From Candidatus Gastranaerophilales bacterium (GTDB lineage: Bacteria; Cyanobacteriota; Vampirovibrionia; Gastranaerophilales; Gastranaerophilaceae): a stretch of DNA of 64,000 nt. Made by a program: the position numbers and the translations under genes. The notes beneath the pieces were generated by a model. It ran no database searches. It was not told where the DNA came from and saw only the letters and a program-made list of their open reading frames with translations. The stretch covers positions 11,903 to 75,902 of the forward strand of contig CALUQX010000009.1 of assembly GCA_944323045.1 (NCBI GenBank), read 5' to 3'. Below are positions 5,119 to 49,516 of this stretch, piece after piece. Positions within the stretch are counted from its first letter, which is position 1. Each line of letters starts with the position of its first letter.

Positions 5119-6246
5119 ATGAAACTAAACAACAACAAAGCAGTGGCTCAGACCAATTCCAGAAACGGACTTAACGTCCTAACGTCTTATCGTCTTAACG
5201 TCTTTGGAAGACGCTCCGCGTTTACCCTCGCCGAAGTCCTCATCACCCTTGCGATAATCGGCGTAGTGGCGGCGATAACGATACCAAGCCTTGTTAAGAA
5301 CTACAATGAGCATGCATGGTTAACCGCACAGGATGTGTTCACCAAAAGACTTGAAGTCGCAACCCGCCAAATGAACACCGAGGAAAAACTTGCGGGTTAC
5401 AGTTCGACAATGGATTTTGTAAACGAATTAAAGAAGAAAATCAAAATAACCAACGTATGCGATAGCAACAATTTGAGTAAATGCTTTGAAAGCACAATCT
5501 TAACAGCAGACGGTCAGGAAATAGATGCTACTAATTTAAAGACATCCGCCAAACTTGCCAAAGAGGATTGGGGAACGGAAACAGTTGGCGTGCAGTTTGC
5601 AAATGGAATAAATGCATTAATAGCATATAATCCGCAGACAGACCAACAACCGTTCAATAATCAGTTTAGTGCGACTGAGGCAAGCATGGCAATATTGTAT
5701 GACGTATCCGGACACAAAAATCCGAATACCTTAGGTAAAGACGTGAATCAGAACGCGAATGTTAAAAAATTAGGCTGTTATATTAAGCCGGATTTAGTAG
5801 GCGGTATGTGCATAAGCCAGATACTCGTCCCAGGAACAGGCTATAGCCCTATGACGAAAGCAGAATGCGACCAAGCAGTATCCGACGGAGAATTAGGGGT
5901 AAAGGCTTGCCAATATAATGATGATTATTGGGCAGGAGCAGTGAAAGCATGTGGAGGAATAAACAACATGCCAACAGAATCGCAATTAATAGACCTAGCT
6001 AAGTACGTATATAATACAGACAGTATAAACGGCGGAACAAGTACAACACATGCAACCTTAGACACAGAAAAAGCCTCTCAATTCCTCTCAGCATCCCCAT
6101 ATTCTAATTCGTTCTATGTTTGGTCTGGGCAGGAGAGCAGCAGCCTCGGCGCGTACTACCGCGACTTTCGCTATACCTACACGCTCTGGTACGACAGCAG
6201 CGCCCGCGACAGCAGCATCATACTCGCGGTTTGTCTTGACCAGTAA
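5119..6246 (+). CDS. prepilin-type N-terminal methylation-domain protein with lectin-like hypervariable C-terminus (paralog A)
   Basis: AAAAAGGAGA RBS before ATG 5119. AFTLAEVLITLAIIGVVAAITIPSL class-III signal/hydrophobic helix with E at +5. C-terminal YWAGAVKACGG..MPT..QL..LAKYVY...FYVWSG...AVCLDQ resembles the DUF1566/C-type-lectin-like layout. The ORF is open in frame back to 4696 (see findings). Confidence 0.85.
   Translation: MKLNNNKAVAQTNSRNGLNVLTSYRLNVFGRRSAFTLAEVLITLAIIGVVAAITIPSLVKNYNEHAWLTAQDVFTKRLEVATRQMNTEEKLAGYSSTMDFVNELKKKIKITNVCDSNNLSKCFESTILTADGQEIDATNLKTSAKLAKEDWGTETVGVQFANGINALIAYNPQTDQQPFNNQFSATEASMAILYDVSGHKNPNTLGKDVNQNANVKKLGCYIKPDLVGGMCISQILVPGTGYSPMTKAECDQAVSDGELGVKACQYNDDYWAGAVKACGGINNMPTESQLIDLAKYVYNTDSINGGTSTTHATLDTEKASQFLSASPYSNSFYVWSGQESSSLGAYYRDFRYTYTLWYDSSARDSSIILAVCLDQ
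6121..6243 (+). other. candidate DGR variable region (VR-A)
   Basis: GC-rich island in an AT-rich gene. By hand count, 24 of 30 codons in 6136-6225 end in C. Identical flanks in paralog B, with internal differences mostly at codon positions 1-2. Confidence 0.55.
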
Positions 6247-6261: not shown

Positions 6262-6780
6262 AATGGCGTGACTAGGTGATTAAGTGATTAGGTGATTAAG
6301 AGGATTTCAAAATGAGGCAATGCAAGAATCAAGCGTTGCCTTATTTTTATTAACTACTTAGTGCCTCAGTGCCTCAGTGCCTTAGTAACTTAGTAACTTT
6401 CAAGAGAGATCCCGCAAGGCGTCGAATCTAGCGTGACGCGTAAATGCCGCTGCGGGATGACATGGGGCGTTGGCTGCTCAATGTAACAACTGTTCACAGA
6501 TTACTGTTCACTGAGAACCGGTTCGTCGAAATGACAGCACCCTACGACTACGTTCATATTATTTGACCCCTCACCAAGTATTGACATTGCCTGTACTTCT
6601 TTAGCGGGCACCCAAAGTGTAAAAGCGGACTTGTCCGCCCCGCAAGGGGCGAGGAAAATTCAGCGTTGCCTGATTCATGTAACCCGCTTAATCACTTAAT
6701 CACCCAGTCACTTAATCACTTTTGTAACAACCGTTCACCGGTCTTGGTTAAAGCTTAACAAAATCAGGTACTCTGTTTTT
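6262..6780. repeat. mosaic interspersed-repeat region downstream of paralog A
   Basis: Concatenated modules: GTGATTAA 8-mers, a terminator-like hairpin, TAGTGCCT 8-mers, a polar stem-loop (6406-6463), GTTCAC 7-mers, the AGAACCGGTTCGTCGAAATGACAGCACCCTACGAC module (6514-6548) and a 93-nt module (6646-6738). Confidence 0.85.
6646..6738 (+). repeat. 93-nt conserved module (GGGGCGAGGAAAATTCAGCGTTGCCTGATTCATGTAACCCGCTTAATCAC...TTTTGTAACAACCGTTCAC)
   Basis: Identical by eye to 25315-25407. Partial reverse-complement copies at 41084-41159 and 33868-33919. Confidence 0.85.
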
Positions 6781-32493: not shown

Positions 32494-33288
32494 TTAGATT
32501 TTATACGGATAATTGTCTTTATACTCCCAATTGTCCATCCGTAGTAAATCTGAACAGTATTTGCCGTTTTGGGCGCATAAATCGTATATATGCTCATGGT
32601 AATTTTCGTAGCGAGATGGTTGGTACCCATAAGTCCCAAAGTATTGTTTGTTTGTTTCAAAATAGGTTTTTCTGGAGCTTACCAGTGGCGAAAAAAGGAA
32701 GCGGTATCTGTCATAACCCTCTTTATCCGGTCCTTCGTCTCCGTTAACATCATAAAAGAAATCTATACAATCCCCGTTGTTTACAAAAAATGTGGAGCCG
32801 TCATTTAGATAGACTTTAGTTAATTTGACAATTGTTCCATTATTTATTTCGATTGGTTGATTCTCTTCTATTTTTAGATATTTCATGTATGGCAGTATGT
32901 ATGTATTTACAAATTCAAATCCGTCTTTTGCATTGGTTAATCTGGCTTGTTCAATTTCATCCTCATCTTCCAGTTCATTTATGTTTATATACTCTTTTTT
33001 ATTCCAGTATTCTACGGCGCCGTTATGCACAGTTGACATTTCAATCGCCTGTTGCATTGTAGAGTAGAATTTTTGCAATTTTGTTGAATATTCTTTCTTT
33101 TTGTAACCTTGTATTAATGACGGAACAGTAATCGCTGCCACCACGCCGATTATTGCGAGGGTGATGAGAACTTCAGCGAGCGTAAACGCGTTGGCTCGTT
33201 TGAGGAAGTGAGTGCTGTGAGTAAAGTGAGTACCGTGGTTTCTTTGATTAGGCTTTGTACTTGTTTCTTCTTTTGTGTTGGTTTTCAT
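32494..33288 (-). CDS. prepilin-type N-terminal methylation-domain protein (P6)
   Basis: ...GTHFTHSTHFLKRAN-AFTLAEVLITLAIIGVVAAITVPSL. YDVNGDEGPDKEGYDRYRFLF motif. The leader is encoded by GTGAGT-type 9-mers (33205-33235). Confidence 0.8.
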   Translation of the reverse strand: MKTNTKEETSTKPNQRNHGTHFTHSTHFLKRANAFTLAEVLITLAIIGVVAAITVPSLIQGYKKKEYSTKLQKFYSTMQQAIEMSTVHNGAVEYWNKKEYININELEDEDEIEQARLTNAKDGFEFVNTYILPYMKYLKIEENQPIEINNGTIVKLTKVYLNDGSTFFVNNGDCIDFFYDVNGDEGPDKEGYDRYRFLFSPLVSSRKTYFETNKQYFGTYGYQPSRYENYHEHIYDLCAQNGKYCSDLLRMDNWEYKDNYPYKI

Positions 33289-36840: not shown

Positions 36841-37311
36841 ATGAAAATTTTAGGCATAGATCCGGGTATGGCAATAGTAGGGTATAGTCTTGTTGATTTT
36901 GACGGAGAAACGTCGCAACTCCTGCATTCAGGTTCTATAAGAACTTCTAAAGATGATTCTGAAGCCGCCAGATTACTGGAAATATTTGAGGACATGACAA
37001 CTATTGTTGAAAAATACAAACCTGACGCGGCATCAATTGAAAAACTGTTTTTCTTTAGAAATCAGACAACTGTAATGCCGGTTGCTCACGCCCGCGGGGT
37101 TATACTCACTGTACTGGAAAAATTTAAAATACCAATATTTGAATACACGCCGATGGAGGTCAAACAGATTCTTACAGGCTACGGACGCGCTGATAAAAAA
37201 GAAGTCGAACAGATGGTTAAACTCGCACTCGGTTGCGACAATCTGCCGAAATTGGATGACACCGTCGATTCCATTGCTATTGCTATCTGTCATACCCGTC
37301 ACTGTTTGTGA
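36841..37311 (+). CDS. ruvC: crossover junction endodeoxyribonuclease RuvC
   Basis: ILGIDPG, acidic catalytic residues and the C-terminal DAIAIAICH motif. Confidence 0.9.
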   Translation: MKILGIDPGMAIVGYSLVDFDGETSQLLHSGSIRTSKDDSEAARLLEIFEDMTTIVEKYKPDAASIEKLFFFRNQTTVMPVAHARGVILTVLEKFKIPIFEYTPMEVKQILTGYGRADKKEVEQMVKLALGCDNLPKLDDTVDSIAIAICHTRHCL

Positions 37312-38950: not shown

Positions 38951-40981
38951 ATGAAAAAGAAAGTAATAGCATATCTGCACACCCACTGGGACAGAGAATG
39001 GTATAGAGAATATGAAGTTTTTAGACTGCGGCTTTTGAGAGTATTTGACAATGTTCTTGATATGCTGACTCAGAAAAAAATTCCCTGTTTTTATTTTGAC
39101 GGTCAGGTGGGCGCATTGCTTGATTATCTGGAATTGCGACCGGAAAAAGAGCTGCTTGTCCGCAATCTGTGTGCAGAAAAAAAACTTTTTATTGGTCCTT
39201 GCTATTGCCTGCTTGATGAATACCTGACAGATAGAAAGGCATTTGAAAAAACTCTGGAAATAGGCTTGAAAATTTCACATGACTTTGGTTGTACTGATTT
39301 TATAGGCTATCTTGCAGATACTTTTGGACACAGCAAAAATATACCGCAGATTTTTAAAAAGTTTGGTATAGACAAATGCATGGTCTGGCGCGGATGCGGT
39401 GATATTCCTGCAGAATTCACCTTTAATGGGATTGATACGGTGAATCTCATCCGCGGGTATTATATGGATATTTTTTCTTCACCAATTTCAATAGATGAAA
39501 AAGCAGTCTGGTTGAAAGGTAATCTTGACAAAATTGCTGAAAAATCTTCCAATACCCTTCTTTTGCCAATCGGTGCCGATCATCTCGGTGTTGAAAAGAA
39601 TATTGCAGAACAGATTAGTGAAATTAATAAACGGCTTGATGATTATGAAATTGTTCTGGGTTCGCCTTTTGATTATTTTGACGCTGTGAAAGATAATTTT
39701 AAACAATTTATCTGGAACGATGAATTACGCGACAATTCTAAAACATTCATACTTTCTGGCTGTTATTCCGCAAGAACTAAGTTAAAGCAGATGAATGTAG
39801 AATCTTCATACAAACTTGCACTTGCTGACAAATACCAGCAGCACCGCGGCGCAAAGTATAATAATGCGATTGAATATGCTTACAAAATGCTTTTGAAAAA
39901 CTTGGCACATGACGGAATATGCGGCTGTTCAACAGATGCAGTGCATAGAGAAAATATGATTCGTTATGAAAAAATTCAACAGGTTGCAGATACAATTATA
40001 AAAGAATTAAAATTTGAACATCCGCAAACGGTTAACTTTAGTGATTATAATGGCGTTGTGGAATTTGAATCGCCTGAAATACTGCCGGATACTCAAGTTA
40101 TTGAGACGCGCTATGGATTTGAAGATTCTCTATTGTTTGATACACAGCGTATTCCGGTTACTGAAGATTACAAACCGATTTATAAGCAACTAAAAGAATT
40201 GTCGGTGTCGGATGATACTTTAGAAGCAGGTAATAATTTTATTAAAAACCGTCATATTACGTTAATAGTAGAGAATAATTTAATAAAAATTTCTTCAGAA
40301 AAAGAGAATTGCACGGTTGAATTTGAACGCTGGCATGATGAAGGCGATACTTATAATTTTGGTGCAGTTGAGGACGATATTCCAGAAGTTGCGGAAATTA
40401 CCGGTACAGAATTGGTTACGGAAGGCAAACTGCGTGTCGGACTGCTTATTAAAACAACATTTTTTAACGTTGTTGCATATTTAAATAAGAATTCAGAACT
40501 GATTAATTTTAAAATAGAATGGAATAATGAATTGCGTAATAGATTGTGGCAGGTGAAGTTTAATCTTGCAGCCCCTGTTTGTGAAACTTATTCTGAGGAT
40601 ATGAACAGTGTTATTTGCAGAGAATTCAATCCTGAATACAATATGCGGGAACATTTGCCAAAAGTACGCGGCATAGAGGTAAAAACAAATTTCGCGCCTA
40701 TGCAAAGATATGTCGGAACAGAAAATTTTGGTGTAATAACTAAAGGGCTTACGGAATATGAAGTCTGGAAAAATTCACTGAAAGTTACCTTGCTGCGTAG
40801 TACAGGAGTTATTTCAAATCCTAAAAACCCTTCGCGTTCTACACCTGCAGGACCACCGTTGCCGGTTGAAGAGGCACAACAGTTAGGATGTAATAACGCA
40901 GAATTCGCCGTAGGATTTTTTGCTCCAGAGGATTATCAGAAATATATAGATGAAGTATTTCCAATGAACATCGTTGTGTGA
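38951..40981 (+). CDS. glycoside hydrolase family 38 protein (alpha-mannosidase / mannosylglycerate hydrolase-like)
   Basis: N-terminal HTHWDREW metal-binding motif and the LADTFGH motif characteristic of GH38. Confidence 0.8.
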   Translation: MKKKVIAYLHTHWDREWYREYEVFRLRLLRVFDNVLDMLTQKKIPCFYFDGQVGALLDYLELRPEKELLVRNLCAEKKLFIGPCYCLLDEYLTDRKAFEKTLEIGLKISHDFGCTDFIGYLADTFGHSKNIPQIFKKFGIDKCMVWRGCGDIPAEFTFNGIDTVNLIRGYYMDIFSSPISIDEKAVWLKGNLDKIAEKSSNTLLLPIGADHLGVEKNIAEQISEINKRLDDYEIVLGSPFDYFDAVKDNFKQFIWNDELRDNSKTFILSGCYSARTKLKQMNVESSYKLALADKYQQHRGAKYNNAIEYAYKMLLKNLAHDGICGCSTDAVHRENMIRYEKIQQVADTIIKELKFEHPQTVNFSDYNGVVEFESPEILPDTQVIETRYGFEDSLLFDTQRIPVTEDYKPIYKQLKELSVSDDTLEAGNNFIKNRHITLIVENNLIKISSEKENCTVEFERWHDEGDTYNFGAVEDDIPEVAEITGTELVTEGKLRVGLLIKTTFFNVVAYLNKNSELINFKIEWNNELRNRLWQVKFNLAAPVCETYSEDMNSVICREFNPEYNMREHLPKVRGIEVKTNFAPMQRYVGTENFGVITKGLTEYEVWKNSLKVTLLRSTGVISNPKNPSRSTPAGPPLPVEEAQQLGCNNAEFAVGFFAPEDYQKYIDEVFPMNIVV

Positions 40982-41970
40982 CGTAGTTTGGGGACAATTG
41001 AAAAATAATAGCGGGCACCGATTCGGAGACCCGTGAGCAGTCGTAGGGAGCCGTCGTTTCGACGAACAGGTTCGCTGTGAATTGTGAACGGTTGTTACAA
41101 AAGTGATTAAGTGACTGGGTGATTAAGTGATTAAGCGGGTTACTTGAATCAGGCAACGCCACCATGTCATCGCGCAGCGGCATAGTCGCAATTCTAGCAA
41201 GTCGTAGATAATGCGCGATCTCTACCAATAACGTCATCCCGCAAGCGGCATTTACGCGTCACGCAAGAATCGTCGCCTTGCGGGATCTCTTATGGAGGTC
41301 GTTAAGTTACTAAGGCACTGAGGCACTAAGTAGTTAATAAAATCAGGTAATGTGGAATGCAGCATTGCTTGTGTTTTTCATGTCCTCCCCTGGAGGGAGG
41401 ACCGGAATTTTTAATTCCGAGGAGGGGGACGCGAACGTAGTGAGCGTTTAATAACTAGAACACTGTCAAGTGCAACATGGGCTAGATGCTGAAACAGTCT
41501 TGGTTGCTCGCGTGTGTCTTACTCGTTCGCGTTTAGCAGGTCTTCGGTTGACGCCAGCAATGGCAGAGCCATTTTGCCGTCAAGCCTCCGCCTTCCGCTC
41601 TCTCGCGCAACGGCGTTCCGGACTTTCTTTTCAGCGGCTTTGCCGCCTCCAAAGAAAGCTCCTACAGCCTCTGCTCGCAATCCGCAGTTCAGCATGACAA
41701 AAAATAAATAAGGCAACGCTTGAATCTTGCTTTGCCTTATTTTGAAATCCTCTTAATCACCTAATCACTCAGTCACCTAATCACTTTAAAACAGAGATCG
41801 CGCAACCCGTGCGCGATGACATGAAAACATCCGACAACATGGGATATCCACATTGCCTGATTAATTGTAAATACTTTACTCACATTACTCACCCCACTCA
41901 CTTTAGTCACTCTTTTTGAGATCACGCAAGTCATCAAGTCTTGTGCGCTCCGTCCTTCGATTCAATATAC
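40982..41970. repeat. orphan ~1-kb non-coding mosaic repeat region
   Basis: Module set of the paralog A/B downstream regions in inverted orientation. Includes two tandem polar stem-loops (41166-41222, 41233-41289), a third at 41794-41823 and a GC-rich island at 41470-41700. Only repeat-derived ORFs are present. Confidence 0.8.
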
Positions 41971-43131
41971 TCACGCATTATAGGCAGCAAAGAATGCTTT
42001 CAACAATTCGTGACCTTTGAGCATTGACTTATAATCCAGTGTTTCGTCTTTTGAATGCATATTGTATACTGTTGCAAAGCCTGCTAAATACGGAGCGAAC
42101 ACCTCACCATTTGCATTTTTCTTGCCTGCATAAATATGAGTTTCAGCGCCGGCGTGGAATGATGAAATCTTATAATCAACACCTGCTTTTCTAGCTGCTG
42201 TTTCAAACAATATCGGAATATATTCATCTTCAACTTTTTCAAATGGCGGCAAATGTTCTTCAAATGTTATTTCAGCTTTTGCAACACCTTCATACTCTTT
42301 ATTGCAATGTTCAATTTCGTTTTTCATCATTGTTTTTAATTCTTCTTCAACTGAACGGCTTGCACTTCTTATTGAATAAGTTGCTTCTGCATAAGTGTTA
42401 ATTACATTTGTTACATCGACATTTCCTGCTTTAATTCCACCGATATTGCAGGAAGTTATTACCTGACCGTTTTCGCTGTAGAAAACACCTTGCGGAAGAT
42501 TTGATACAATATCAGCAATTAATTTTGCGGCATTTTCTCTTGTTTTGTCGGCAATATCAATTCCTGAATGTCCGCCTTTGAATGTGTTAACCGTAATTTT
42601 AACAAGAGTATAACTGGCACCGGAAACTTCTAATTGTCCAAGACTGTCACTGTCACATACTAAAATATATTTAGACTGCAATTTAGAAAAATCAACATGT
42701 TTTATCCCTGACATACCTGATTCTTCATCTCTTGTAAACATCAATTCCAATCCACCGTGTTTCATTTCCGAATTTGCGACTTCTTTAGCCAGAAAAAGCG
42801 CATTGGCAACACCAGCCTTGTCGTCGCCGCCTAATGTTCTGCCCTTTGCTCTTATTAAATCACCGTCCAGATAAGTTTCAACCGGACTATCATCTCCGAT
42901 TACATCCATATGAGAGGACAACAACAAAGATGGTTTAGATGAATCTGTAGGCAAAACATGTGCATAAACATTGCCATAGCTGTCGTGTTCGCACGGAATA
43001 TTATTTTTTTTGCAGTAATCCAGAATCCAATTAGACACATTTTCTTCTTGCAAAGAAGGTGACGGTACTTCTGCAAGATTACAGAATAAATCAACTAACT
43101 CATTTTCTTTTCTTAAAACACTTAATTCCAT
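41971..43131 (-). CDS. M20-family metallopeptidase (PepT/PepD-like)
   Basis: SSHMDV, GGDDKAGVA, TRDEE(S)G metal-ligand motifs. Start set at MELSV (AGGAG RBS). Confidence 0.75.
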   Translation of the reverse strand: MELSVLRKENELVDLFCNLAEVPSPSLQEENVSNWILDYCKKNNIPCEHDSYGNVYAHVLPTDSSKPSLLLSSHMDVIGDDSPVETYLDGDLIRAKGRTLGGDDKAGVANALFLAKEVANSEMKHGGLELMFTRDEESGMSGIKHVDFSKLQSKYILVCDSDSLGQLEVSGASYTLVKITVNTFKGGHSGIDIADKTRENAAKLIADIVSNLPQGVFYSENGQVITSCNIGGIKAGNVDVTNVINTYAEATYSIRSASRSVEEELKTMMKNEIEHCNKEYEGVAKAEITFEEHLPPFEKVEDEYIPILFETAARKAGVDYKISSFHAGAETHIYAGKKNANGEVFAPYLAGFATVYNMHSKDETLDYKSMLKGHELLKAFFAAYNA

Positions 43132-43209
43132 TTTAATTACTCCTATTTTTGTAAGTGTACCTGCTATCATAAAGATGAGAGTAATTATTTAAACTAGTAT
43201 TTTAAAAAT

Positions 43210-48405: not shown

Positions 48406-49516
48406 AATGGTCAAGACAAACCGCGAAGAATTTTTTGTTACGGTTGTCGTAGCGCGGACCTGTGCTGGTATAGCCGAAGTGTCTAGCGTCCTCTGCGGTA
48501 GATGACCAAACATAGAACCGTTCAGAATATGATGTTAAAGCTGAGAGGAATTGGTCTGCTTTTTCTGTATCTAATGTTATGCCTGATACACTCTTATGGG
48601 CGTCTATTGTGAATTTCAAATTATATAAATATGTCGCTAGTTCGCCTAGATGTGTCATTGTTGGCATGTTGTTTATTCCTCCGCATGCCGCCACTGCCCC
48701 TGCCCAATAATCATAGTCAGACGTACATTTGTTTATACCTAAGTCTTCCTTTTGTTCTTCACATAGAGCTTTACTTAATGGGCTATACAGTGAGAGTATT
48801 TGAGTTATGCAAAATCCTACTTCGTCTTCTGGCAGCAAGCAGCCTGTTACGCCTGCTAGTTGGGTTACATTTGCGTTATGGGCAATGTCTTTGCCGTTGG
48901 TATTCGGATTTTTGTTGCCGGAGACATCGTAAAGTATCGCCATGCTGTTACTTGTGGCGTTGAACTGGTTATTATACGGGTCTTGGGTCGCATTCGGATT
49001 GTAGGCAATTACTGCATTTACGCCATTCGCAAATTGCACTGCCACCGTATCAGTCTCCCAATCCAGACCAAAAGCTGATGCATCTGTTACTTTTGACATG
49101 TCTACTGGTTCCTCATCAGCACTCCAAATAACTTCTTTATTAAAGCATTTTGTAATATTGTCATTATCGCAGACTCTTGTGATTTTAATATATTTTTTCA
49201 ACTCATTCACAAAGTCCATGGTTGAATTGTAACCGGCTAGTTTTTCCTCTGTGTTCATTTGTCTTGTGGCTACCTCAAGGCGTTTTTCAAAGACATCTTT
49301 TGCGGTTAACCATGCATGCTCATTGTAATTTTTCACTAGGCTTGGTATCGTTATCGCTGCCACCACGCCGATGATTGCGAGGGTGATTAAGACCTCTGCC
49401 AAAGTAAACGCGGCTTTTGGGGAAGTGATTAAGTGAGTGAAGTGAGTACGGTGAGTACCGTTGTTTCTGGAATGGGTCTGAGCCATGGCTTCGTTGATTT
49501 TGTTGTTAGTTTTCAT
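48404..49516 (-). CDS. prepilin-type N-terminal methylation-domain protein with lectin-like C-terminus (paralog C)
   Basis: Start chosen by homology to paralog B (…CAACTCCAAATGAAAAC); the ORF track extends to 49564. AFTLAEVLITLAIIGVVAAITIPSL. C-terminal FYVWSS...AVCLDH. Confidence 0.85.
   Translation of the reverse strand: MKTNNKINEAMAQTHSRNNGTHRTHFTHLITSPKAAFTLAEVLITLAIIGVVAAITIPSLVKNYNEHAWLTAKDVFEKRLEVATRQMNTEEKLAGYNSTMDFVNELKKYIKITRVCDNDNITKCFNKEVIWSADEEPVDMSKVTDASAFGLDWETDTVAVQFANGVNAVIAYNPNATQDPYNNQFNATSNSMAILYDVSGNKNPNTNGKDIAHNANVTQLAGVTGCLLPEDEVGFCITQILSLYSPLSKALCEEQKEDLGINKCTSDYDYWAGAVAACGGINNMPTMTHLGELATYLYNLKFTIDAHKSVSGITLDTEKADQFLSALTSYSERFYVWSSTAEDARHFGYTSTGPRYDNRNKKFFAVCLDH

Follow-up and report, generated by a model that had tools for sequence, protein, structure and literature searches.

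The question raised by this locus is why a spacer of 989 nt (positions 40982-41970) should separate two convergent genes, one for a GH38 alpha-mannosidase-family protein on the plus strand and one for an M20-family peptidase on the minus strand, in a genome where the median convergent gap is 52 nt. The locus lies in a window of 64,000 nt taken from contig CALUQX010000009.1 of a Candidatus Gastranaerophilales bacterium (GCA_944323045.1), and coordinates given without a contig name are those of the window. The genome analysed amounts to 1.98 Mb in 44 contigs; its gene calls are crude, being a greedy set of open reading frames (ORFs) of at least 90 amino acids, and pilin-like genes were recognised through a motif pattern. 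On these calls the spacer ranks fifth in length among 318 convergent gaps, and 20 of the 1753 gaps of any kind reach its length. Its GC content is 47.6%, against 36.4% for the genome. An earlier note on the same DNA had offered three explanations for the spacer: a deleted or excised prepilin paralog, a landing pad for such cassettes, or an independent cluster of non-coding RNAs. It is suggested here that the spacer is probably a repeat mosaic similar to the bacterial interspersed mosaic elements (BIMEs) and to neisserial intergenic mosaic elements (NIMEs), one that grew at a derived junction between two gene 3' ends and now supplies both genes with terminators. The best reading of the spacer is as neither a gene relic nor an RNA gene cluster, and the block appears to be a fairly ordinary example of a repeat system that has been little described.

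Comparison of the spacer with its own genome by blastn gave 328 matches over most of the 44 contigs, and these tile spacer positions 58-948, so that nearly all bases from 41039 to about 41929 belong to short elements dispersed across the genome. Iterative closure from the spacer as seed gathered 281 pieces, which merged into 207 blocks with a total of about 37-43 kb; this catalogue was built by transitive BLAST closure, and a few of its entries may be conserved pilin 3' ends. The GH38-M20 block is the longest single piece in it. Blocks favour gene 3' ends and are present in 42 of 318 convergent gaps compared with 73 of 1435 tandem or divergent ones (odds ratio 2.8, p = 1e-6), the type of gap for which repetitive extragenic palindromes (REPs) have a known bias (PMC3733652). 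Many blocks are located at contig ends, which implies that blocks break assemblies. The closest relatives of the GH38-M20 block elsewhere in the genome vary from one segment to the next and their identity is patchy, from 84 to 99%; a 358-nt stretch (spacer positions 452-808) is 99.4% identical to the DNA trailing a pilin-like gene on contig C1.

The view taken in the earlier note, that the spacer is a non-coding mosaic of repeat modules, is borne out by these dispersed modules and by a search of the spacer ORFs in which no Pfam domain was found, and every module on its list was recovered at or near the place it gave. Its ORF at 40839-41237 was also recovered, on the minus strand, whereas its second ORF, '41470-41716', proved to be a fusion of frames on opposite strands. 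When the spacer was compared by blastx with all crude proteins of the genome, only repeat-derived N-terminal leader snippets were matched. The features of the locus are, from left to right:

38951-40981, plus strand: GH38 alpha-mannosidase-family gene, left flank, 3' end toward the mosaic (Pfam PF01074, E = 4e-22, and PF09261)
40839-41237 (minus), 41470-41697 (plus), 41514-41711 (plus) and 41519-41716 (minus): ORFs overlapping the spacer, from the ORF listing
40982-41038, no strand: largely unique 57-nt segment, with two dispersed matches only, touching its last 6-15 nt; apart from the self-match, none starts before spacer position 43
41043-41068, plus strand: GTAG-tagged REP (GTAGGGAGCCGTCGTTTCGACGAACA; the CGTCGTTTCGACG module of the earlier note), one mismatch to the 22-nt genome consensus
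41077-41090, plus strand: two GTGAAY heptamers, which come after the REP in most copies
41103-41135, plus strand: four-unit GTGATTAR octamer array, GTGATTAA/GTGACTGG, in the sense of GH38 (Tandem Repeats Finder period 8, 4.4 copies)
41165-41222, plus strand: TGTC-tagged hairpin repeat ('polar stem-loop'), stem ATCGCGCA/TGCGCGAT, 35-nt loop, tail CTC
41232-41289, plus strand: CGTC-tagged hairpin repeat, stem ATCCCGCAAG/CTTGCGGGAT, 31-nt loop, tail CTC
41302-41337, minus strand: octamer array, minus-strand TTAGTGCC/TCAGTGCC/TTAGTAAC, an inverted match to 6345-6384
41344-41371, plus strand: hairpin and T-run, first terminator-like site 3' of GH38
41380-41430, plus strand: Whalefall-1-like double hairpin, made of CCUCCC/GGGAGG (41382-41430) and CGGAAUU/AAUUCCG hairpins, with a AGGAGGGGG tail
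41483-41699, minus strand: giant member of the CGTC/TGTC family ('GC-rich island'), TGTC-AT-GCTGAAC ... GTTTCAGC-AT-CT
41516-41608, plus strand: nested 93-nt hairpin module, inside the giant element
41706-41742, no strand: palindromic terminator-like hairpin AAATAAGGCAACGC...GCTTTGCCTTATTT, bordered by an A-run and, on the opposite side, by a T-run
41753-41784, minus strand: four-unit GTGATTAR octamer array, GTGATTAG/GTGACTGA, in the sense of M20 and inverted relative to the array at 41103-41135
41794-41821, minus strand: minimal TGTC-tagged hairpin repeat, stem ATCGCGCA, 5-nt loop, tail CTC, then a T-run
41833-41857, minus strand: hairpin and T-run, first terminator-like site 3' of M20
41873-41911, minus strand: GTGAGTNNN nonamer array (GTGAGT 9-mers), in the sense of M20 (Tandem Repeats Finder period 9, 4.3 copies)
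41971-43170, minus strand: M20-family peptidase gene, right flank, 3' end toward the mosaic (Pfam PF01546 and PF07687), with mutS2 next along the window

One of these modules can be linked to a transposase. The REP at 41043-41068 forms an imperfect palindrome of 26 nt that carries GTAG as its 5' tag and is parsed as GTAG-GG-AGCCGTCG-TTT-CGACGAAC, and the genome consensus is GTAGGGTGCCGTCGTTTCGACGMACC. With up to three mismatches the 22-nt core has 44 copies in the genome, against none for the reversed control and none in five congeners; most copies are singletons, and 3 of 45 pattern matches fall within crude gene calls. A single Y1 transposase match (PF01797) was obtained in the genome, to a 173-aa protein encoded on contig C6 (46346-46867). 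It scores 155.7 bits with the NCBIfam model NF047646 (cut-off 80), has both the HUH (HFH) and the Tyr (YIHYNP) motif, and its gene is bracketed by inverted copies of the REP, GTAGGGTGCGTCGTTTCGACGCACC, one 57 nt upstream and the other 6 nt downstream, as would be expected of a REP-associated tyrosine transposase (RAYT). A third REP stands further upstream of this gene, which has a pilin-like gene as its convergent neighbour. The GTAG REP is specific to the species, and RAYT genes are patchy among relatives. In one related genus (G006) a REP variant, GTAGGGTGCTGTCCTTTGGACG (C14:788-809), adjoins that genome's own RAYT genes (C20:50742-51260), and its stem changes are compensatory relative to the REP studied here. 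In the congener G003 a RAYT gene (C1:37703-38110), the product of which has 44% identity to the RAYT described here, is found directly upstream of the GH38 ortholog; judged from this arrangement, REP/RAYT elements may recur in the vicinity of GH38.

The spacer also holds four hairpin repeats with a CGTC or TGTC tag, the giant copy included. This family has 53 copies in the genome, all with the tag, an AT-first stem of 8-10 bp and a 3-nt tail (CTC). Five stem variants differ from each other by compensatory changes, two of them making up 48 of the 53 copies, and the loop is of 5 nt in about 24 of the 53 and of 7-95 nt in the others. The 35-nt loop of the hairpin at 41165-41222 holds AGTCGTAG, an 8-mer that also precedes the stem of the GTAG REP. 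The assignment of the giant element to this family is based on alignment, in which its loop shows homology with the loops of 83-95 nt in the long copies and is like them at both its start and its end. Further giant copies with 97-99% identity are present on contigs C1, C3 and C10, and an otherwise homologous copy on contig C8 is without the nested 93-nt module and so represents an empty site. This module has at least 10 other copies in the same genome, standing alone, and its consensus fold contains compensatory change in 7 of 23 pairs.

A third class is represented by the double hairpin at 41380-41430, which scores 21.3 bits with the Rfam model of Whalefall-1 (RF01762), below the gathering score of 37, and aligns to all 56 model positions. 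Its copies in relatives score 19-31 bits, the best among 31 genomes being 30.7 bits, and these alignments also cover the full model. There are 12 copies in the genome studied and 28-35 in some relatives, and it is a multi-copy repeat in several Gastranaerophilales (12-35 copies per genome; G001, G003, G006 and G029). The module is 94-98% conserved across species with proteins that are about 80-89% identical. Two forms of its hairpin 2 exist, distinguished by two compensatory double changes, and many copies have a third hairpin, GTAGGC-GTA-GCCTAC.

The remaining modules are tandem arrays and terminator-like hairpins. The first terminator-like hairpins met after GH38 and after M20 both lie within the mosaic, and the palindrome at 41706-41742, with its two runs, could on sequence grounds terminate transcription both ways; a pattern search found 24 hairpins of this type in the genome. 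Two further GTGAGTNNN arrays are present in the window, at 33208-33246 and 49424-49462. Across the genome 31 of 49 such arrays are within crude gene calls and antisense to them, the coding strand reading ACTCAC.

These modules have a preferred order relative to the gene behind which they stand. Read from M20, the spacer begins with the 9-mers, a small hairpin, a GTGATTAR array, the terminator hairpin and the giant element, and goes on with the Whalefall-1-like module, the TTAGTGCC array, two hairpins, the inverted GTGATTAR array, the heptamers and the REP. The same order is found, more or less complete, behind pilin-like genes on contigs C1, C2, C3, C7 and C8 and behind paralogs A and B, and also behind a gene on contig C26 that is not pilin-like, where the block has no pilin on either side. 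The earlier note had matched the minus-strand order of the spacer to the trailers of paralogs A and B, and this match is confirmed, with the blocks on C1, C3, C7 and C2 matching better. The arrays also have a polarity. GTGATTAR arrays are in the sense of the nearest upstream gene in 47 cases and antisense in 16 (p = 1e-4), the figures for convergent gaps being 24 and 3, and among 14 intergenic 9-mer arrays 13 share the sense of the gene upstream. Pairs of GTGATTAR arrays of opposite orientation within 1.2 kb of each other face inward in eight cases and outward in none, and there are five more pairs in tandem. No bias of orientation relative to the upstream gene was seen for the REPs or the CGTC-type hairpins.

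Such polarity is what might be expected if the arrays, the Whalefall-1-like module and the hairpins formed a cluster of functional RNA, whose parts would work within 3' untranslated regions or serve as small RNAs, protein-binding sites being one example. The bias of the arrays to the sense orientation (47 to 16 and 13 to 1, and 24 to 3 in convergent gaps), the conservation of the Whalefall-1-like module between species, the covariation of its hairpin 2 and the compensatory pairs of the 93-nt module would all agree with this, and Whalefall-1 was itself put forward as a non-coding RNA (PMC2864571). However, every Rfam match in the spacer is below its gathering score: at that threshold the lone match in the window is a tRNA outside the spacer, and a permissive scan of the spacer gave sub-threshold matches only. 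ARAGORN gave no match in the spacer and a promoter scan of it returned 0 sites. The two strands fold equally well, each far better than shuffled sequence does (z = -7.2 and -8.2), a result that suits DNA palindromes and not an RNA gene on one strand, and in multi-copy hairpin repeats covariation is equally expected of substrates for transposition as single-stranded DNA. We therefore consider an RNA function for the block very unlikely, and the independent non-coding RNA cluster of the earlier note has no support above threshold, Rfam offering a sub-threshold Whalefall-1 match only.

The association of the blocks with pilin-like genes is strong. In the 150 nt downstream of the gene a block is present for 43 of 94 pilin-like genes and for 90 of the 1681 others (odds ratio 14.9, p = 2.5e-26), so that 46% of pilin-like genes are block carriers compared with 5% of other genes. 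At the same time about two thirds of the gene-adjacent blocks come after genes that are not pilin-like, as do 7 of 13 9-mer arrays and 4 of 12 long CGTC-type elements when the polar modules are assigned to the genes that head them. The idea of an orphan prepilin locus thus keeps its support in the shared order, the polarity and the enrichment, and loses the exceptional status given to it, with two thirds of the blocks standing behind other genes.

It is possible to go further and to suppose that a pilin-like gene once stood between the mosaic and M20 and was lost, or that its trailer was separated from it by rearrangement, leaving the trailer on its own. The order of modules from M20 equals that of the pilin trailers, one segment is nearly identical to the trailer on C1, blocks are so much more frequent behind pilin-like genes, and none of the seven relatives described below has the GH38-M20 junction. 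Against this, the spacer contains no fragment of pilin coding sequence, and the prepilin boundary motif GCGGTTTGTCTTGACCA was not found in it even at 3 mismatches, its only occurrences being at 6226, 24956 and 48408. For the same two reasons the deleted or excised paralog could not be upheld in the form in which it was stated. The same gene-less sequence is present in nine other samples, the polar modules often have non-pilin heads and the block on C26 is without a pilin. The order of genes downstream of M20 also differs in every relative, so lost synteny is not specific to this site. On balance a trailer left behind by its gene seems quite unlikely. A link with a diversity-generating retroelement (DGR) was considered and rejected: no RVT_1 reverse transcriptase was found in the genome, and the spacer has neither a pilin-like ORF with an N-terminal methylation motif nor a 3' GCGGTTTGTCTTGACCA boundary with its hairpin, by which it could be recognised as a prepilin or DGR-target cassette.

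Thirteen contigs from nine other samples encode the identical GH38 or M20 protein and carry spacer sequence that is 99.8-100% identical; nine of them have the identical M20 protein, and the identical GH38 protein is found on others. Those that enter from the left extend to 41521 and those from the right to 41401, with the same gene-less sequence, and no alternative junction or structural variation at the site was seen among them. The earlier note would have taken a constant gene-less arrangement, without variation or transcription, as a sign of inert repeat accumulation, and the first half of this picture is what the nine other samples present. One difference nearby concerns a RuvC gene (window 36841-37311), which is a single ORF of 156 aa here and two ORFs of 100 and 52 aa in the conspecific contig L048 (3891-4361); the split may reflect either a frameshift at strain level or an error of assembly.

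The whole spacer is spanned by the genome's own contig alone, and it might be asked whether that contig joined the GH38 and M20 sides through a near-identical repeat, the two genes not being truly adjacent. All other assemblies break inside the block, the 358-nt core has its 99.4% identical copy on C1, and the left and right contigs overlap by 121 nt only, part of which matches C2 at 96-98%. Yet L053, an independent contig, extends from M20 across the entire core into left-flank sequence of the type found at this locus and on C2, and not that of C1, while C2 does not have the full core. The left-side contigs are 100% identical to this locus compared with 94-96% to C2, and other copies of the core were assembled within contigs. 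An assembly artefact is accordingly regarded as highly improbable.

Comparison with relatives suggests that the block grew in this species. GH38 and M20 are on different contigs in seven of seven relatives (five congeners and two members of other genera). The gene after M20 differs in every relative, and the neighbours of GH38 differ in most; with M20 neighbours differing throughout, synteny is uninformative as to a former occupant of the site. Within the genus, reshuffling of gene order is seen on a scale of a few kilobases. In the five congeners M20 is followed by a spacer of 32-93 nt with a hairpin and T-run, each different, and with no mosaic, and the four GH38 orthologs examined have spacers of 0-116 nt. 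The short spacers of the congeners indicate that the mosaic is specific to this species' own GH38-M20 junction. The modules other than the REP are common to four of the five congeners and to some other genera.

A block at a species-specific junction would also suit a recombination hub or landing pad of the NIME type, in which shared modules promote the exchange of pilin-like cassettes and the present site is unoccupied or was recently used. The blocks are strongly associated with a large and variable family of surface proteins (97 pilin-like genes), the patchy identity, in which each segment has its own closest partner (84-99%), suggests gene conversion, and there is a precedent in the NIME arrays around pilS and surface-protein genes of Neisseria (PMC1797815). 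However, the conspecific contigs are without structural variation at the site, no recombinase other than RAYT is linked to the modules, and the former neighbours of GH38, on contig C2, have no reciprocal block. A hub of this kind is in our view unlikely. A broader version would regard the mosaics in general as selected, NIME-like recombination substrates, possibly with a part as RNA 3'-end elements, that serve to shuffle about 100 pilin-like proteins, with GH38-M20 as a site where a cassette was exchanged or lost. This is a long shot; if it were true, the 'Whalefall-1 RNA' would be a module of an interspersed repeat system.

The reading that we favour, a mosaic accumulated at a junction of two 3' ends, would involve the following steps. 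The block would have grown within the species at a derived 3'-3' junction, where insertions are likely to be tolerated. Growth would have occurred by insertion of hairpin elements, with RAYT acting on single-stranded DNA in the case of the GTAG REP, and further by recombination or gene conversion with other blocks. The spread of REPs by RAYT through single-stranded DNA is established for TnpA-REP of Escherichia coli (PMC3333891, PMC8266576). The hairpins of the block may now act as transcription stops and 3'-end stabilisers for both GH38 and M20, and would replace the classical terminators that congeners have kept after M20.

Several points weigh against this account. The conserved order, the polarity and the 15-fold enrichment at pilin-like genes exceed what random accumulation would predict, and they point to copying of whole trailers or to selection. 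With a single GTAG REP in the block, RAYT can explain only a small part of it, and we know of no enzyme for the CGTC-type elements or the arrays. Continuity across 41401-41521 depends on one contig and on a 121-nt overlap in partly repeated sequence. Finally, we infer the terminator and stabiliser roles from the sequence.

If the spacer is a repeat mosaic, its length can be explained without a missing gene, a part of a retroelement or an RNA gene, and the result at this locus is mainly one of clarification. More generally, an uncultured gut lineage, the Gastranaerophilales, is seen to have a REP/RAYT system together with CGTC-type hairpins, nested modules and polar arrays that follow a preferred order; a literature search found no description of such repeats in Gastranaerophilales. 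The mosaics associated with pilin-like genes parallel the NIME arrays around Neisseria pilin genes. They also break metagenome assemblies at predictable places, and the tie between Whalefall-1 and a multi-copy repeat module may help in reinterpreting this orphan motif.

Comparison with known systems helps to define what is familiar and what is different in the block. The GTAG REP and its RAYT resemble the 'REPtron' (PMC2817692, PMC3333891, PMC3733652, PMC8266576) in that a tagged palindrome is multi-copy, extragenic and most frequent at gene 3' ends, and in that a single RAYT gene is bracketed by inverted copies of the same REP. They differ in the number of copies, about 44 compared with the more than 100 that are typical of classic REP genomes, and in the REPs being mostly singletons, accompanied by GTGAAY heptamers and without inverted pairing. 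The REP also makes up less than 3% of the GH38-M20 block, and the Gastranaerophilales, which are non-photosynthetic, are outside the lineages surveyed in those four studies.

The tagged hairpins are similar to the CGTC-tagged repeats of Di Nocera et al. (2013; PMC3733652), a superfamily defined by a CGTC (or TGTC or CCTC) tag, an AT-first stem of 8-9 bp, a loop of 4-5 nt and a short unpaired tail. Here too we find the CGTC or TGTC tag, an AT-first stem of 8-10 bp, a minimal loop of 5 nt, an unpaired 3-nt tail and subfamilies with compensatory stem changes, and no transposase gene flanked by such repeats was noticed, though no systematic search was made. The tail is CTC here as opposed to the published consensus CCA, more than half of the copies have loops of 22-95 nt, and one type is of about 200 nt and has a nested module. 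The phylum is outside the five listed in that study, and the likeness is one of described features.

The Whalefall-1-like module shares with Whalefall-1 RNA (RF01762; PMC2864571) the two hairpins, similar unpaired stretches and alignment over the full model; it differs in its sub-threshold scores and in being a multi-copy interspersed repeat. As a whole the block can be compared with the BIMEs of E. coli and its relatives (PMC3333891, PMC2817692), which are likewise extragenic mosaics of REP hairpins and other short motifs at gene 3' ends and between convergent genes, with presumed roles in termination and mRNA stability. BIMEs consist of alternating REPs and linker motifs, whereas the block has one GTAG REP, and so does not contain the two or more alternating REPs with linkers of a BIME in the strict sense; most of it is made of other classes of module, including tandem arrays of 7-, 8- and 9-mers.

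Turning from RNA motifs and enterobacterial mosaics to arrays, to our knowledge the Whalefall-1 motif has so far been seen only in whale-fall metagenomes. The NIMEs of Neisseria, which are made of dRS3 and RS elements (PMC1797815), combine many families of short repeats into long arrays, occur in association with loci for surface proteins and pilins, and vary in position and length between species, all of which recalls the blocks described here; they have been proposed to promote recombination of adjacent genes (PMC1797815). The sequences are unrelated, no 20-bp dRS3 inverted repeat (ATTCCC-N8-GGGAAT) was found in the spacer sequence or in its inverted-repeat list, and a recombination role here would be hypothetical. 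The tandem arrays have a further parallel within the cyanobacterial lineage itself.

Heterocystous cyanobacteria have short tandemly repeated repetitive (STRR) heptamers, which form short intergenic tandem arrays. The arrays of the block, with units of 7-9 nt, are of the same general kind. They differ from STRR heptamers in the sequence and the length of their units (7, 8 or 9 nt here), and in that each has about four units, forms part of a larger ordered mosaic and has a strand polarity relative to the gene upstream.

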